A stretch of 51,016 bases of DNA from a virus (IMGVR_UViG_3300036781_000120:1-51016), one strand, 5' to 3'; shown: positions 2,924 to 29,984, counted from the stretch's first letter. Notes: generated by a model from the sequence alone, not told the origin. Program-made: numbers and translations.

Positions 2924-5877
2924 TATGCGAAATTCTCAAATTTACATTGTTCAATTTCAGCTGGCAGCCCCGTTGCAGCTTCGAATTGTCCGAAATCCCA
3001 GCTGGAATACACTGAGCAGTCAAACGGTACGTTCAAATTTACATATTTTTTCCGCAAAACAAAATTTGCTAATTCACTTTCCGGGTTATAAGATAATTCC
3101 ATTAAAAAACCTTGCTGCGCATTCCCGTCGCAGTCAATAACGCTTATATAGCCGTTGTTCCGGCCTAATGGATCCCGGTTTTCAAAGCAGCGCCTTAATA
3201 AGCGAAGCGTGTCCCACGAAATACGCTTACTGAAAGTTATTTTTGTCGGATAAAAGAGCTTATCGAAATTACTAACTGCGGCCAATACCAGGCTATCGCT
3301 CTCCTTGAACACTTGTGTACTGTCGCAAGTATCGGGGGTAATTAATTGAGAGATAAGATCCCCATTTTTAGCGACAAAGGTATTTCGTATTATATCGCTT
3401 GGCTTTTTGTAAGCTAATCCGCTATTTACCCATTTACCCCACCGGTCGAACATTCGCGCGGGGGATTGCCTGATATTATAGGCTGTTTCCGCACCTATGA
3501 TACCTGAAGCTGTAAAATTTTCATTTGTTTCGGATTTAAATCCCGTTCCGCTACGTACCGAACTAACGGCAAAGTTATCTTCATCGTACGTCCAGCTATC
3601 CTCCGGCGTATCTAAAAACGCCTGCCGGCGTGTTAATTCAATAGCGTATCCGGAGGTTATTTGGGAACATTGCTGCGAAAGCTTCTGCTTAAAAGATTGT
3701 ATAGGCGTTAAGTAATCGTGCAGCGTACAAAATTCATCCAGTGTATTTGCAGACGAAGGTAAATTATTAGTAAATTTCTTATAGCCAAATTCGAGTTCGT
3801 TATAAATGATTCCTGTGTCAATATCTTCTACGTAATCGCTTACCTGGTCGAAAAGAATTATTTCCACATTCTGATAAAAGTAATCGAAACGCTCAAGCCT
3901 TACTACGTAGTTATTTTGGTTATTTAATTCGTAGCCTTTCCCTACGCAGTACATCGCGTTAAGCCCTTCTATAAAATCTTTAAAGGAAATTTGTATCGGT
4001 CTGTTTGCAATGTCAAAACCCCTGATCTGGTAACCGTTAGAATAGGCTATTAAAGCCGCGCAACCGTCGGCGGGATACCCGATATCCGTACGGCCTAATA
4101 AATTACTTACTAAAGCTCCCTGATTATCGGTAACCTCTTTAATAACAGCATTTGCCACCTCGAACGACATAAAAGCCTTCGTAGTTGTAGTTTTGGCCAA
4201 CGTATCGCCCGATAGGTTAAGCGTTTGATATACCTGGTCCATTTGCACCAGCCCGTCCATAACGCATCCGCGTTTTTCGCAGATATACTGCCCGTACAAA
4301 AACACTTCATCCCCTTGATTAAGTGTTAAACTGGTTGTGTATTCTGTTTGAAAAGCTACGTCGTTATATCGCGAATTAGTGAAACCCGACTGACCGCCCG
4401 GTAATTCGATAACGTTCGGGATATTATTAACTACTAAAAACCACTTATAAGACCAATAACCGTGACGCGGGCCGCAATTATGCCCTCCGGGGCAAATGCA
4501 AATAGACTTTTGATCTAATTTGATGTGGATAACCACGCTGAACTTTAAAGATATATTGAAAACGCCGCCCCCGTCTGTTTTGAACAGATATTGCCCCGTA
4601 ACTAGCGGGTTATCCGAGTATATGCCAAATGTTGGCGCATCTGGACAAAGATCGTTTTGTGTAGCTCCTGAAAGATCAAGGTAAGACCAATAGCTCAAAA
4701 AAGGCGCATCGCCTGAAGGCGCAGAACCGTTCCAGTCATTTACCGATAGCCCCCCTACTATATCTCCTGTTTTACCGCCGGTATTAACTATCGTGGTTTC
4801 CCGGATTAATTTGCTGTGTAAAGGCAGACTGATCGCGCCGTCTTTTAAACTAACTAACGTATCCGCGCGTGTTTCTAATAGATCGTTAAACGTTTTACGT
4901 TTTACGCCTACCGATACGTAATTTTCCTGCTTTTCGTAAACGTTAAAATCTACATAAGCGTCGAGCTCAGCGATAAAGGCTCCGTATTTATCGAAACCAA
5001 ACTGAAACCGTACTATAGCGTCATTTCCGTATTTATCGTGCTCTTCTATAAGTATTTGCCGTCCTGCGGGATCGTCAAACCGCAATTTTATATCTCCCTC
5101 GCTAAACAGATAGTCCACCCCGTGATAAGTATCGTCGCGTTTTAAAACTATAGCAATTTTATCCCAGTCTTTCGGCTCGTCTATTTCCCAGGTATCGGTA
5201 AGCGTAATCAACCTGAATTGATCCGGTTTCTCATATAGGTTATTAAGTGCTTCGGCGTCGTTCGGGTCGGGTTCAGGATATATACAAGAGCCGTCATTTA
5301 CCTGGGCCGCAGGATTGTAATTTGAAGCTGCGGGATCGGTACACCCGTATACGGGCCCAAAAGCAATAACCGAAAAGTCTTGTTGTGCCGTACAACCGTT
5401 CGAATCCTTAACATAAAAAGTGTAATCGCCGGGTGCAAGTCCTGTAAATACCGATACGCCCGGTGCCGAAAATGTAACTCCGTCTATAGAGCAGTTAAAA
5501 CTATCTGCCGAAGTAATGACGGTCCCGGTAACTGTTCCGTCTTTTGCGTTTAACGCAGTTTCGTTTGTGGCTATTAAATCACCGATAATCAGGTCGCAGC
5601 TATCTGCGCTGGAACAACTATCAGGTGCCCCGACGGTCATAGTTACAAATGGAAAGGCTGTTGCTGCAAAAAATCGGTAAGCTACATTAGCAACGCACTG
5701 CATATTATCACCGTGCACAAGCTCTTCCCCGTCGGTATATCCCCAGTTAGCAGGGTCTAGGCTTGGCAAAGGATGACCGCCGAAAAAGCTCGTTCTTAAG
5801 GAATTATCGTCAGTATCGAAAAAAGCTTGGTAAGTCACACCCGCATAGGTAAAACTGTTTTTAAGAATCATACTCAT
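2923..5877 (-). CDS. Tail tip/hub (central fibre) protein
   Basis: 984 aa directly downstream of the tape measure gene; contains an SprB-like repeat (FTGLAPGDYTFYVKDSNGC) and a GCTDPAASNYNPAAQVNDGSC motif. Confidence 0.6.
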   Translation of the reverse strand: MSMILKNSFTYAGVTYQAFFDTDDNSLRTSFFGGHPLPSLDPANWGYTDGEELVHGDNMQCVANVAYRFFAATAFPFVTMTVGAPDSCSSADSCDLIIGDLIATNETALNAKDGTVTGTVITSADSFNCSIDGVTFSAPGVSVFTGLAPGDYTFYVKDSNGCTAQQDFSVIAFGPVYGCTDPAASNYNPAAQVNDGSCIYPEPDPNDAEALNNLYEKPDQFRLITLTDTWEIDEPKDWDKIAIVLKRDDTYHGVDYLFSEGDIKLRFDDPAGRQILIEEHDKYGNDAIVRFQFGFDKYGAFIAELDAYVDFNVYEKQENYVSVGVKRKTFNDLLETRADTLVSLKDGAISLPLHSKLIRETTIVNTGGKTGDIVGGLSVNDWNGSAPSGDAPFLSYWSYLDLSGATQNDLCPDAPTFGIYSDNPLVTGQYLFKTDGGGVFNISLKFSVVIHIKLDQKSICICPGGHNCGPRHGYWSYKWFLVVNNIPNVIELPGGQSGFTNSRYNDVAFQTEYTTSLTLNQGDEVFLYGQYICEKRGCVMDGLVQMDQVYQTLNLSGDTLAKTTTTKAFMSFEVANAVIKEVTDNQGALVSNLLGRTDIGYPADGCAALIAYSNGYQIRGFDIANRPIQISFKDFIEGLNAMYCVGKGYELNNQNNYVVRLERFDYFYQNVEIILFDQVSDYVEDIDTGIIYNELEFGYKKFTNNLPSSANTLDEFCTLHDYLTPIQSFKQKLSQQCSQITSGYAIELTRRQAFLDTPEDSWTYDEDNFAVSSVRSGTGFKSETNENFTASGIIGAETAYNIRQSPARMFDRWGKWVNSGLAYKKPSDIIRNTFVAKNGDLISQLITPDTCDSTQVFKESDSLVLAAVSNFDKLFYPTKITFSKRISWDTLRLLRRCFENRDPLGRNNGYISVIDCDGNAQQGFLMELSYNPESELANFVLRKKYVNLNVPFDCSVYSSWDFGQFEAATGLPAEIEQCKFENFA

Positions 5878-22010: not shown

Positions 22011-22820
22011 TCAATAAAGTACTTCATACAGCGCGAACATTTCGGACGGATCGGAAAATATCATAAGCGCTCTTTCGTCTAAAATATCTTCAAACTTGAT
22101 TTCGCAGATACTTCCGCAATCCGGTAAAACGATTTTAGAATCGCGACCCTCATTCGGATCCAGTTCGTCAAGGAAAACACCTTTGATACACGTTCTGCCG
22201 ACTTCTCTTTCGCACTCTGCCATACGTAAGAAATAAGTCGGGAAGTCAATACGGATTTTATTCCAATATCCTTTGCCCCCTTTTACGCAGCCGATACAGT
22301 TATTATTCGAGTAGCCCAAAAGATACATAGTAGGAAGCAGTATTCCGGCTTCGGCCAAAATATAAGCGCATTCATCTTTTATAATACGCGATTCGATTAA
22401 AGGAAAACGAGGTGATGTTTCGGGGTATTGCTGCAAAAATCGTACAGCCCGGTTTATCTCTTTGAGGGAAAACTCAAACCCGAATACCTGAAGCGTTCCC
22501 ACTGGGTATTGTTTCTGGACTTTTTGACGTACGAACTTTTTTAAATGGGACGTACAAAAAGCGCGCCCAGCTATGTTCACAAAACCCGTGTCCTCTATAA
22601 CTTCGAATTGATCTGCATATTTTAAACTCCTGGTTCGTTTTATCATTTTACCGAACCAGTATTCACAATCTTCTATAAACCGTTCGTTATCGGGATGGGC
22701 GCTACCTATTTCGATATACCATATGTCTACGTTATCCATTCCGTACTTTTCGATAGCTTGCTTACAGGCAACCGCCGAGGTAATTCCGCAGGAAAACCAG
22801 CAGATAACTTTTTTATTCAT
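22011..22820 (-). CDS. PAPS-reductase-like (PP-loop) family protein
   Basis: WFSCGITSAVA PP-loop, FCTSHLKK, YSNNNCIGCVKGGKGYWNKIR; start revised to ATG 22820 after TATATTTG-GGAAACCAACAAA. Confidence 0.8.
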   Translation of the reverse strand: MNKKVICWFSCGITSAVACKQAIEKYGMDNVDIWYIEIGSAHPDNERFIEDCEYWFGKMIKRTRSLKYADQFEVIEDTGFVNIAGRAFCTSHLKKFVRQKVQKQYPVGTLQVFGFEFSLKEINRAVRFLQQYPETSPRFPLIESRIIKDECAYILAEAGILLPTMYLLGYSNNNCIGCVKGGKGYWNKIRIDFPTYFLRMAECEREVGRTCIKGVFLDELDPNEGRDSKIVLPDCGSICEIKFEDILDERALMIFSDPSEMFALYEVLY

Positions 22821-22855
22821 AATATTTTTGTTGGTTTCCCAAATATACGAAATTA

Positions 22856-24157
22856 TCAATACAACTTCTTAGCCGGCGCCGCTTTATTTCCGTAATGATC
22901 GATAATAACGTAACGCAGCTGATCCCAAAAGTGGTTGAACCCGTCTTTAGGATCGTTGGTGTACTCCCCCGACTTGTTTACGTTATACACATATTTAGCA
23001 ACCTCTTCCCAGGCAGCTTCCCCGCATTCGTTGTCATTTACGATATAAAGTTCAAGTCCTTTCATTATACCGATATGGGCTTCGATATCTTTGGGACCGC
23101 AGGGAACAGCGTAAAAGCCGTGTACCAATTGCGGGTATTTAGCTAAAATTTCTTTATCCAGTTTTGAAGCGGGCCAGCCCCTTGACAGTTGTAAAATAGT
23201 ATCCGGCTCCGCGTGATCACAAATAATACGATCGTTCTTTGTAAGCTTTAAATTGCAATACATTTTACCAAGCTCTAAAACTTCTTTCGGCTCGTAGTTT
23301 ATCAGCCTGGCATAAACGCGGTTCTTATCGAACTTAGCGCCGCCGAAGGCAGCTGGCGCTGCTGTACCGAAATCCTGCCCGAAGTACTCTTTTAAAGTTA
23401 AGTTGTGATAATCCTTAATCGAATAAGGTTTACACTTAGTAAAGATTTGCCCTTTGCGGCCTGAACTCGAATAGCCTTTTATAGCGGTTAAGAAATAATG
23501 TTTATCGTACGTCGGGGAAGACGGATTACCGTATTGCTCATAATTGTAGATTATGTGTTCAGGTAGAAAGTTATTGTCGGTGTAATTAGTTTGGATACAA
23601 ACAAAACCTGGTAATTTTTTAGGTATGAGTTTAAAATAACCGTCTTCTACCAGGCGTTCGCCGTATTCGTCATACTGGAAATTTCCTTCGCTGTCCAGGA
23701 TCGGAACGTTTTCAAAAGTGAAATACCGCTTCGAAATAAAATGCGAAATGTCAGGAGTGTTTAACATTATGATAACGATACAACCCTGTTTACGAAGGCT
23801 ATCTACGAAAGTGTTATACTTCATAGGGTCGTTAATGTCTTCGCCCTCTTCGATTATGGCTATGTCGATATCTGAAGCACCTTTTAAATTTGCACGCTTA
23901 CTATTGTCTGAAGCCCGGAAACCTTTGGTATAAACCAGCGTTTTACCAGACTGTTTATCTTTTAGATCGTGTTCATTTTTTACGAAAGCACCGTCTAAAT
24001 GTCCGTCCCGGTTAGCTGTATCATACCGCGCCCAAATTTCGTTTAGTATGCTTTCCCGAATCAATGCTTTTTCGTCGCGGACTATGACACAGCGTTTTTT
24101 ATGTACCGTGGCTGAGAAAGCAATAAACTTGCTTACCTCGTAGGTTTTCATGCCTCC
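22856..24157 (-). CDS. terL: Terminase large subunit, downstream segment (from the second half of Walker A)
   Basis: GGMKT, Walker B IAIIEE, coupling motif MLNT, nuclease motifs GQDFG, CDHAEP and DGFNHFWDQLRY (PBSX/Terminase_3-like). Confidence 0.9.
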   Translation of the reverse strand, partial: GGMKTYEVSKFIAFSATVHKKRCVIVRDEKALIRESILNEIWARYDTANRDGHLDGAFVKNEHDLKDKQSGKTLVYTKGFRASDNSKRANLKGASDIDIAIIEEGEDINDPMKYNTFVDSLRKQGCIVIIMLNTPDISHFISKRYFTFENVPILDSEGNFQYDEYGERLVEDGYFKLIPKKLPGFVCIQTNYTDNNFLPEHIIYNYEQYGNPSSPTYDKHYFLTAIKGYSSSGRKGQIFTKCKPYSIKDYHNLTLKEYFGQDFGTAAPAAFGGAKFDKNRVYARLINYEPKEVLELGKMYCNLKLTKNDRIICDHAEPDTILQLSRGWPASKLDKEILAKYPQLVHGFYAVPCGPKDIEAHIGIMKGLELYIVNDNECGEAAWEEVAKYVYNVNKSGEYTNDPKDGFNHFWDQLRYVIIDHYGNKAAPAKKLY

Positions 24158-24168
24158 CCGATACTTCA
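24158..24168 (-). other. 11-nt coding gap in terL (candidate translational bypass: UGA AGUAU CGG)
   Basis: Removing these 11 nt fuses IVCIGGR to GGMKT and restores Walker A; the CGG codon is repeated on both sides of the gap. Confidence 0.7.
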
Positions 24169-24258
24169 CCGCCCGCCGATACAAACAATTAAGTTCGCGT
24201 CGGCGGGCAGGTTATATAGGGTTTTAAATTGATCAGATACTTTTACGTTTATCGGCAT
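24169..24258 (-). CDS. terL: Terminase large subunit, N-terminal 30 codons
   Basis: MPINVKVSDQFKTLYNLPADANLIVCIGGR followed by TGA; typical terL N-terminus (F..LY, hydrophobic strand, GGR); its start overlaps the end of the HNH gene. Confidence 0.85.
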
Positions 24259-24871
24259 AATACTGCATTACTTCTTCAAGTGTTTTAGTTTTTAACTGGT
24301 AATAAAATCCCGACGGATTAATTTTAAAGTGTCGCGCCCAGTCCGCTAATATCATTCTTTTACCATCGTGTTCAACCCAAACGTTCTTTTTTATGTTTTG
24401 CCCTTGCTCAACGTATGTTGCCCAAAAACAATTGTTTGGACCGTAATCTCCGTTAACATCAAAGCGTTCAATAGTAAACCGGCCGCCTTTTACGCCCTCG
24501 GGACGTTCGCCCATATCGGTTATGAAGTTTTCAAACGAGTTGATCCAACGTTCACAAACCTTTATACCTAAGGCGCCGTATGCGGGATAAGATATGTGTT
24601 TAGGATCGTTGCAACGCTCTTTCATCCCCCGCCATACGCGATAAATCGGATCCTTTGAACGACCATGCGTTTTATTAGCTTCGCTAGCCTTATCTTTTTG
24701 CGAGCAAGTGCAGCTTTGAGTATGTCCGCTTCTAAGTTTATTCCCGACTACAACAACCTCGTTACCGCAATCACACTTACACAACCAGGCTGCGGCAGTC
24801 CTGATATTTTCAACGCGCTTTAAAACTGTCAATCGGCCAAACTTTTGACCTGTAATGTCTTTTAATTCCAT
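24233..24871 (-). CDS. Free-standing HNH-type homing endonuclease
   Basis: DITGQKFGRLTV..WLCKCDCGN..SGHTQSC N-terminal domain; WRGMKERC, YGALGIKVCERW and TIERFDVNGDYGPNNCFWAT; inserted between terS and terL with its own TATATTTG promoter; start revised to 24871. Confidence 0.9.
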   Translation of the reverse strand: MELKDITGQKFGRLTVLKRVENIRTAAAWLCKCDCGNEVVVVGNKLRSGHTQSCTCSQKDKASEANKTHGRSKDPIYRVWRGMKERCNDPKHISYPAYGALGIKVCERWINSFENFITDMGERPEGVKGGRFTIERFDVNGDYGPNNCFWATYVEQGQNIKKNVWVEHDGKRMILADWARHFKINPSGFYYQLKTKTLEEVMQYYADKRKSI

Positions 24872-24911
24872 AATAGTTATTTGGTTTAATACCCCAAATA
24901 TACAGCTTATG

Positions 24912-25691
24912 TTATTCAAAAACAATGGGTAATTCTGATAAATTTATACTTACAGTCCGGGTATTATCTTCACTGTATTTACCGGCAATTTTCAACAGTT
25001 GTATTGCTGCATCCTTAGCGTCGTAAAGCTCTACCTCGATACCGTCTTTAGTTTCTTTGTACTTTTTAATTTTGCCGTTTTCGTGATCCGCGCAAATCTT
25101 ATTCAGGTCTAAAACTTGTTTTTTGACCAGGTAAGTATCGCCTAAAACGATACGCTTTGCTAGTGGTCCCTTTTTACGGATCTCCGTTTTCAAAGCTACA
25201 ATGTTTAAAGCAATTTCTTTTTGTCGCTTTTTAGACTGGCTAACATCTAACTTTGTTTCCGCGTACATACATTCGTATTCCTGTTCCGCTGTTAAATCGA
25301 TTTCCAGGTCTTGCAACAAATGTTTTAAAGGGCGCTCGATCCAATCCTGCTGCGGTAATACGCGTTCCGTCATGTACTGCTTTAAATCAGTATCGGCCAT
25401 GCTGCGTAAAATTCGAAGGTTATCATCTGGAACGCCGATTTCCTGTTCTAAGACGTATTCGATATAAGCCTTAACAGCGGGCCGGTTATACGTCTTAACG
25501 CCGTAATTGCTTGCTGTGCTTTCAGGTTTACCGAGATCCCGGGAAGCCTGGGTTTTGTTAAGCCGCTTTAAATAAAAGTTTGCCCAGCGTAAATGCTGCG
25601 GGTCCTCAATCGCGGCCGCTAACTGGTCAACATCTAAAATCGGTTTATCGTCTTCGCTTTGCACGGGGTAAATATAAAAAATATTTGACAA
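24912..25691 (-). CDS. terS: Terminase small subunit
   Basis: N-terminal HTH (WANFYLKRLNKTQASRDLG...RPAVKAYI) and C-terminal IEVELYDAKDAAIQLLKIAGKY; true start may be GTG 25664, just after TATATTTAC. Confidence 0.8.
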   Translation of the reverse strand: MSNIFYIYPVQSEDDKPILDVDQLAAAIEDPQHLRWANFYLKRLNKTQASRDLGKPESTASNYGVKTYNRPAVKAYIEYVLEQEIGVPDDNLRILRSMADTDLKQYMTERVLPQQDWIERPLKHLLQDLEIDLTAEQEYECMYAETKLDVSQSKKRQKEIALNIVALKTEIRKKGPLAKRIVLGDTYLVKKQVLDLNKICADHENGKIKKYKETKDGIEVELYDAKDAAIQLLKIAGKYSEDNTRTVSINLSELPIVFE

Positions 25692-26830: not shown

Positions 26831-26881
26831 CAAATATAACTATAAAAAGTTAATATGCAAATTAAATCGTAATTATTTCAC
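26831..26881 (-). promoter_or_regulatory. Early promoter/operator repeat, copy 1
   Basis: TTTG-N19-TATATTTG (Bacteroidota -33/-7) with a TAACT-N6-AGTTA palindrome at 26837-26852. Confidence 0.8.
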
Positions 26882-27172: not shown

Positions 27173-27202
27173 CAAATATAACTATAAAAAGTTAGTATCA
27201 AA
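27173..27202 (-). promoter_or_regulatory. Early promoter/operator repeat, copy 2
   Basis: TTTG...TAACTTTTTATAGTTATATTTG on the minus strand. Confidence 0.8.
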
Positions 27203-29309: not shown

Positions 29310-29360
29310 CAAAGATAACTATATAAAGTTAATATCCAAATTAAATCGTAATTATTTCAC
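29310..29360 (-). promoter_or_regulatory. Early promoter/operator repeat, copy 3
   Basis: Near-identical to 26831-26881; TATCTTTG -7 box and palindrome at 29316-29331. Confidence 0.8.
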
Positions 29361-29942: not shown

Positions 29943-29984
29943 GTGAAAATAAATTTGCAAATTAACTTTTTATAGTTATCTTTG
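29943..29984 (+). promoter_or_regulatory. Early promoter/operator repeat, copy 4 (rightward)
   Basis: TTTG(29954)-N19-TATCTTTG(29977-29984); palindrome at 29963-29978. Confidence 0.8.

Follow-up and report, generated by a model that had tools for sequence, protein, structure and literature searches.

The large terminase gene (terL) of a soil phage is interrupted directly after an arginine codon of its Walker A motif, and interruptions at this same codon recur in four further lineages from other records. The phage is represented by a 51,016-nt IMG/VR record (IMGVR_UViG_3300036781_000120:1-51016; completeness rating 99%), the whole of which was analysed and is referred to here as the window. 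Judged by sequence comparison, the insert is a genuine interruption that is probably bypassed in translation, and a neighbouring gene labelled as an HNH endonuclease is most likely a separate, selfish occupant of the junction between terS and terL. The explanation that we favour, with somewhat better than even confidence, combines a separable homing-type gene with hairpin-driven programmed translational bypassing of terL.

The gene order on the minus strand is terS, a 212-aa HNH-labelled gene and terL with its split Walker A codons, and the features of this region are the following.

24912..25691, minus strand: terS (small terminase), phrog_51 E 1.9e-10, Terminase_2 E 1e-3 (below the Pfam cut-off)
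40-nt spacer, minus strand: between the terS end at 24912 and the ATG at 24871 of the HNH-labelled gene
24895..24902, minus strand: −7-like box TATATTTG in the 40-nt spacer, a possible, weak promoter element
24233..24871, minus strand: HNH-labelled free-standing gene, 212 aa, ATG 24871, TGA 24235-24233, phrog_374 E 6e-67
24169..24258, minus strand: terL N-frame, 30 codons (MPINVKV...LIVCIGGR), with the first half of Walker A (..CIGGR)
24169..24210, minus strand: predicted mRNA hairpin, ~16 bp with a 6-nt loop, its 3′ arm finishing with the take-off codon
24158..24168, minus strand: 11-nt coding gap, made up of UGA 24168-24166, 5 nt and the landing codon CGG 24160-24158
22856..24157, minus strand: terL main frame (GGA GGC ATG AAA ACC = GGMKT onward), Terminase_3 E 5.4e-13, phrog_2

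The initial annotation had placed the HNH gene between terS and terL, overlapping the terL start and ending about 65 nt from the 11-nt insert. The coordinates bear this layout out, with an overlap of 26 nt between the end of the HNH ORF and the start of terL and with 65 nt separating the HNH stop (24233) from the insert (24168). The start codon of terS is uncertain, being TTG at 25691 in the ORF list and lying about eight codons later in relatives; the gene is 83–87% identical to the terS of the related loci L029 (86%), L002 and L071 (87%). The terL N-frame opens at ATG 24258-24256, ends with CGG 24171-24169 followed by TGA 24168-24166, and aligns to the N-termini of uninterrupted homologues, for example P0008 and P0002. 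The main frame, which is −1/+2 relative to the N-frame, restarts at GGA 24157 (GGMKTYEVSKF...) and has 477 homologues at E<=1e-10. At the other end of the gene, a 282-aa ORF (22011-22859, minus strand) overlaps the terL stop by 4 nt and L029 has a different, 386-aa ORF there, so the stretch 3′ of terL is also variable. A second assembly, a Logan contig, is identical over 23600-25000 with a word depth of 18.8; since its run may be the source sample, this match is not independent data, and the insert draws its support mainly from the four lineages of other records that are broken at that codon. No RNA run is listed with the terL region, and the one DNA run that is listed is possibly the source sample. 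Among GenBank phages there was no DNA match to the window, and protein matches reached only 22–25%, to Clostridium phages. No tRNA gene, as a possible suppressor or quadruplet decoder, was found in the 51,016 nt.

A promoter of its own, which the initial annotation had assigned to the HNH gene, is upheld in part. The upstream spacer holds the −7-like box at 24902-24895, which we take to be a Bacteroidota-type −7 box (consensus TAnnTTTG), but the full two-box pattern TTTG-N17-21-TAnnTTTG was absent from this spacer in a pattern scan of the window, and a sigma-70 scan returned nothing above chance. Across the window the two-box pattern, with the consensus as we assume it, occurs 8 times against 2.09 expected. 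Four near-identical 30-nt copies of a Bacteroidota-type promoter were also observed.

26831-26861, 27173-27202 and 29310-29340, minus strand: 30-nt promoter-pattern copies, TTTG...TTAACTTT.TATAGTTAT.TTTG
29954-29984, plus strand: 30-nt copy of the same promoter pattern

The likely assignment of the hosts to Bacteroidota rests on this enrichment together with the MAG titles of relatives (Mucilaginibacter, Sphingobacteriaceae, Chitinophagaceae).

TerL scans over viral, metagenome and genome contigs gave 84 classifiable loci, among which five distinct lineages, counting the window, are interrupted directly after the same Walker A Arg codon.

Window: gap 11 nt, take-off/landing codons CGG/CGG, next codon UGA
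L001 = L004 = L029: gap 8 nt, take-off/landing codons CGC/CGC, next codon UGA
L002 = L005: gap 25 nt, take-off/landing codons CGG/CGG, next codon UGA
L017 = L038: gap 4 nt, take-off/landing codons CGA/CGA, next codon ACG
L014: gap 4 nt, take-off/landing codons CGA/CGT, next codon UCG

The take-off and landing Arg codons are matched in all five lineages, being identical in four and CGA/CGT in one, a pair that a single inosine-bearing tRNA(Arg) can read. Directly 3′ of take-off stands UGA in three of the five, and ACG or UCG in the two 4-nt cases. By comparison, all 58 distinct uninterrupted junctions read GGR and then at once the second half of the P-loop (the junction is IICIGGRGGKKTYEVSKF in P0002, which is 80% identical, and VICVGGRGGMKTYEVSKFIAFSAT in P0008), and a hop would restore exactly the GGRGGxKT of these relatives. 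Between L029 and L002, whose TerL proteins are 97% identical, the gaps differ by a 17-nt indel, the take-off and landing codons have both changed, together, and all but one of the six differences within the 30-codon N-piece are silent. Interrupted alleles are spread across the TerL tree, with the uninterrupted P0002 nesting among L001 and L002. The matched flanking codons could also stem from the origin of the insertions, as short duplications, in which case selection would not be required. Six TerL protein calls (P0010, P0011, P0018, P0030, P0069 and P0090) begin at the Met of GGMKT or have out-of-frame N-termini, and probably represent further interrupted lineages; viral-contig scans with P0011, P0018 and P0090 returned uninterrupted relatives only. 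The residues of P0010 are compatible with a 7-nt gap starting with UGA.

Folding places a long hairpin, whose 3′ arm terminates with the take-off codon, in five of five interrupted lineages, and the 96-nt fold of the window reaches −38.1 kcal/mol (z −3.7). Compared on the 48 nt up to and including the Arg codon, the energies are −30.8 kcal/mol in the window and in L002, −27.7 in L001, −20.4 in L017 and −18.6 in L014, against a mean of −10.0 kcal/mol (sd 4.1, minimum −20.0) for the 58 uninterrupted junctions. The interrupted alleles rank 1, 1, 3, 4 and 8 of 63 by energy (one-sided Mann-Whitney p 1.6e-4), and the hairpin is specific to them. When base pairs are counted separately within each hairpin group, the groups being one column out of register in an ungapped alignment, L017 and L014 differ by compensatory double changes in 2 of 14 pairs with none broken, and the window and L002 by one double change. 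The 5′ arm of the hairpin accounts for the P-A-D found in interrupted TerL proteins where close uninterrupted ones have P-E-G. A weaker hairpin is present in some uninterrupted genes because Pro codons face Gly codons, which forces part of the pairing, and two uninterrupted relatives reach −20 kcal/mol; this forced pairing may be the reason why the Arg-codon site tolerates insertions.

The HNH label of the 212-aa protein comes from PHROG and UniProt/BFVD names only, and the phrog_374 'HNH endonuclease' match covers only positions 194-404 of a 617-position profile. Pfam returned no family at E<=0.01 for the window's protein, and Pfam HNH families match 0 of 40 family members at E<=1, with a few weak HTH matches; neither NCBIfam HNH models nor sequence and profile searches of the PDB gave a match. 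The protein is predicted to begin with a Cys4 ribbon and to end in a helical or HTH-like part; in the conserved domain between them, residues 132-158 form a beta-beta-alpha element in the AF2 model (pLDDT 90.9; strands 132-136 and 148-152, helix 153-158). A Foldseek search of this model against the PDB had a best E of 0.37, with chance-level kinase and ribosome matches only; against BFVD it recovered numerous proteins of viruses that bear the names putative HNH endonuclease, AP2-domain, PVL ORF-50-like or HTH homing endonuclease, and its structure-atlas neighbours are viral clusters, a minority with NUMOD-type domains. Invariant in the family alignment are R136, N147, C148, W150, Q156 and N159, as well as a His at residue 69; R136 occupies what we take to be the position of the expected catalytic HNH His. 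The family comprises at least 1218 proteins at E<=1e-5, mostly viral and sporadic; confirmed stretches number 559 in IMG/VR, and genomes of prokaryotes from many phyla contribute 403. Having no Pfam model, it may be an uncharacterised nuclease family or a nuclease-derived family of DNA-binding proteins. Because the family is huge and scattered and the gene is optional at one junction, the gene looks homing-type and selfish. It is most likely a free-standing homing-type selfish gene aimed at the terS–terL junction, with a putative nuclease chemistry; its free-standing nature, as first annotated, agrees with its presence or absence at one junction among close relatives.

The initial annotation had further proposed that the HNH gene and the insert form a co-mobile cassette, an idea against which their independent occurrence in relatives would speak, and across the relatives they do occur independently. 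An HNH-like gene is present at the terS–terL junction in the window, L029 and L205, and a tblastn search with the window's HNH protein against L001-L112 recovered only the window, L029 with its duplicates and, on the reverse strand, a copy in L066. The insert stands without the gene in L002, L014 and L017, three of the five interrupted lineages: terS abuts terL in L014 and L017, and where L029 has the HNH-like gene, L002 has a 54-aa ORF (2941-3105) with no PHROG match. The gene without the insert is found in L205, a Chitinophagaceae MAG contig on which terS is followed by an HNH-like gene (phrog_374 E 3e-63) that overlaps the start of an uninterrupted terL (...ILIGGRGSGKT...), with a junction hairpin of −10.5 kcal/mol. 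L205 is the one locus near this terL clade among 80 genome loci of the HNH-labelled family, and among 80 other loci, from viruses, not one lies within 3 kb of a terL of this clade. L071 has neither gene nor gap. Two further HNH-positive, insert-free junctions may exist, as suggested by pairs of an HNH-labelled family protein and an uninterrupted TerL on equal-sized contigs, P0124/P0013 (2618) and P0123/P0104 (2259).

When ten uninterrupted junctions with little upstream flank are left out and L017 is placed by ORF reading, junctions with the HNH gene number two interrupted (window, L029) and one uninterrupted (L205), and those without it three interrupted (L002, L014, L017) and 47 uninterrupted. 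The resulting contrast of 2/3 with 3/50 has a one-sided Fisher p of 0.021, an enrichment that is effectively one event because the window and L029 share a clade; a historical link between gene and insert may exist. Co-mobility is also at odds with the divergence of the HNH proteins of the window and L029, which are 44% identical and so far more diverged than the neighbouring terS (86%) and TerL (~80%). They fall into different subclades: in a tree of 122 family members, the window, P0122-P0124, P0128 and L205 form a six-member clade (support 0.92), with L029 outside. L029 and L002 show high homology on both sides of the junction and lose it only in the stretch that opens with the terS stop and closes at the terL ATG. 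The hairpin and the gap, which both loci retain, lie past this break, and the start of the gap is itself homologous; the segment by which the HNH-bearing locus differs from the HNH-free one thus does not include the gap. Gene and insert are most likely two separable neighbours and no single mobile unit. In the window (24233-24871) and in L205 (3001-3600), the HNH-like ORF extends at its 3′ end across the first terL codons, and the mobile unit may carry its own version of the terL start. L066 has a more distant family member (3262-3762, reverse strand; 30% identity) downstream of terL, on a contig whose end has removed the 5′ end of terL and with it a readable Walker A state.

A single mobile cassette is on this evidence unlikely. 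In such a unit the enzyme would cut the Walker A DNA of competing phages where it is uninterrupted, carriers of the insert would be protected, and the insert would be neutralised during translation. The geometry fits, gene and insert being 65 nt apart; in the window's own clade, the two members with an HNH gene both have an interrupted terL; the crude enrichment (p 0.021) points the same way; and T4 provides a precedent that includes loss of the endonuclease with the bypass kept. Also in its favour, on TerL backgrounds that are 97–98% identical the hairpin and gap are found in L029 and L002 and not in P0002, the first 30 TerL residues differing there in a patch-like manner, at 4 positions against ~2% elsewhere. 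Such a unit is nevertheless hard to reconcile with the HNH gene of the window's own subclade standing beside an intact Walker A in L205, with the two more insert-free HNH junctions that P0124/P0013 and P0123/P0104 suggest, with three interrupted lineages devoid of the gene, with insert-associated HNH genes that are only 44% identical and not sister, and with an L029/L002 homology break that stops at the terL ATG; the lack of Pfam HNH matches in 40 family members and the invariant Arg at the expected His also weigh against it. For the window's own clade, immunity conferred by the insert may still apply. HNH proteins of the HK97 gp74 type work with terminase, and terminase-adjacent HNH genes are known. 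A role as such a packaging accessory, instead of a selfish one, would suit the placement of the gene between terS and terL, but it is very improbable: of 48 uninterrupted relatives whose upstream flank is long enough, 47 do without the gene, as do three of five interrupted ones, the family has unrelated contexts in all 80 other viral loci, and the protein lacks the canonical HNH motif.

As for terL itself, a conventional −1 or +1 ribosomal frameshift without a hop, which would give a P-loop with a few extra residues, strikes us as improbable. The N-frame and the main frame overlap in the window, L029, L014 and L017, and the two 4-nt gaps, which have no stop codon, require a +1 shift only and could be such shifts. 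In L002, however, a TGA closes the N-frame and a TAA 16 nt onward precedes the opening of the main frame, so that the frames do not overlap and a single-step frameshift is impossible. No canonical slippery heptamer is present, one to five extra residues would enter a P-loop whose spacing is invariant across 58 relatives, and the matched codons would go unexplained. An inactivating mutation or assembly error, leaving a terL pseudogene in a defective or mis-assembled genome, might be suspected in metagenomic data from a single sample, where the sole run with the region may be the source. It is extremely unlikely, given that the same codon is affected in five lineages of different records with both pieces open, that five of six L029–L002 differences in the N-piece are synonymous, that the hairpin is specific to interrupted alleles, that a second assembler gave the same sequence and that the record is rated 99% complete. 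The 11-nt insert, for which the initial annotation proposed neutralisation at translation, is best explained as a conserved interruption that is bypassed, in view of the recurrence, the matched codons and the hairpin.

Under the favoured combination of a separable gene and programmed bypassing, one subclade of the HNH-labelled family repeatedly occupies the terS–terL junction of this group of Bacteroidota phages. The ribosome would read 30 codons of terL and halt with CGG occupied by peptidyl-tRNA(Arg) while UGA stands in the A site. Given the length of the ribosomal mRNA channel, the 3′ arm of the hairpin should be inside the ribosome while the P site holds the take-off codon, and completion of the hairpin would thus draw the mRNA out by about the length of the arm. 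We infer that the hairpin stimulates bypassing in this way, refolding behind the ribosome and pulling the mRNA forward, whereupon tRNA(Arg) would re-pair 11 nt downstream, on the second CGG, and decoding would restart. The product of the hop would be a TerL with an intact GGRGGMKT P-loop (...CIGGR-GGMKT...).

Among free-standing intergenic homing endonuclease genes of phages are mob and seg of T4. The window's gene resembles them in being optional and intergenic and in that related phages carry diverged versions of it at one site, and differs in that it has no recognised catalytic domain and that any cleavage by its product is putative. In layout, the closest system is T4 gene 60 with MobA, and its description (Manning & Atkins, bioRxiv 10.1101/2022.08.31.505936) agrees with the precedent as the initial annotation put it, in which the gap is situated beside the HNH gene mobA and shields the allele from cleavage by MobA. 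Bypass is reported there, citing Bonocora et al., in every phage with MobA, and the endonuclease is sometimes lost with the bypass retained. Both systems have an endonuclease-type gene directly upstream, overlapping the start of an essential gapped gene, and both have matched take-off and landing codons, a stop after take-off (in three of the five terL lineages), a stem-loop 5′ of take-off and a gap in a highly conserved motif. Unlike T4 gene 60, with its gap of 50 nt, the terL lineages have gaps of 4–25 nt and show no division of the target gene into two ORFs that have gained tails; unlike MobA, the HNH-like gene has no Pfam HNH match, belongs to phages of presumed Bacteroidota hosts, occurs without a gap in L205 and has a presence/absence boundary that excludes the gap.

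In gene and gap size, the closest case is the terminase of Streptomyces phage Hau3, for which a published study (PMC10732093) proposes bypassing of two 10-nt inserts, prefers it to frameshifting in view of the strong conservation of the junction, and names as trigger a rare UUA codon, linked to host tRNA supply and the lysis–lysogeny choice. Shared with Hau3 are short, frame-breaking inserts in the large terminase whose flanks abut in insert-free relatives; set apart from it are the trigger, which in the terL lineages would be UGA or no special codon, the site at a Walker A Arg codon, the long hairpin reaching to take-off, the recurrence in several lineages and, in some of them, the homing-type neighbour. 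The closest proposed mechanism is the model in which pairing of exiting mRNA acts as forward driver at gene 60 (Wills, Parsawar & Atkins, bioRxiv 10.1101/2024.12.09.627546). The common element is a 5′ stem-loop completed only once mRNA leaves the ribosome; the window differs in its single continuous ~16-bp hairpin finishing exactly at the take-off codon, and the terL gaps (4–25 nt), unlike that of gene 60, are of the order of the length of the hairpin 3′ arm. A literature search of main texts turned up no paper that describes bypassing at Walker A codons in the terminase of a Bacteroidota phage.

A further and rather doubtful extension is that the recurrent inserts at the P-loop Arg codon are resistance alleles or repair scars, selected by a junction-specific HNH-labelled nuclease with this strongly conserved DNA as its target, and tolerated only since a pre-existing Pro/Gly-codon hairpin permits hops. 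If this were true, a selfish nuclease would be in an arms race with the motif of an essential ATPase, and the race would have been settled at the ribosome, repeatedly and independently, and in phages of bacteria that use little Shine-Dalgarno pairing.

To our knowledge, translational bypassing has very few natural examples. One terL family would provide a graded natural series, with gaps of 4, 8, 11 and 25 nt, with and without a stop codon, with varied hairpins and with insert-free controls, and because of this series and its close controls, the forward drive of the ribosome over a gap becomes testable. As gene callers shorten terL (431 aa vs ~460), such phages may be scored as defective. The junction would also be a second, independent setting of a homing-type gene beside a bypassed gap, and since gene and gap can here be uncoupled, it sharpens the question of what purpose a gene 60-type link serves.
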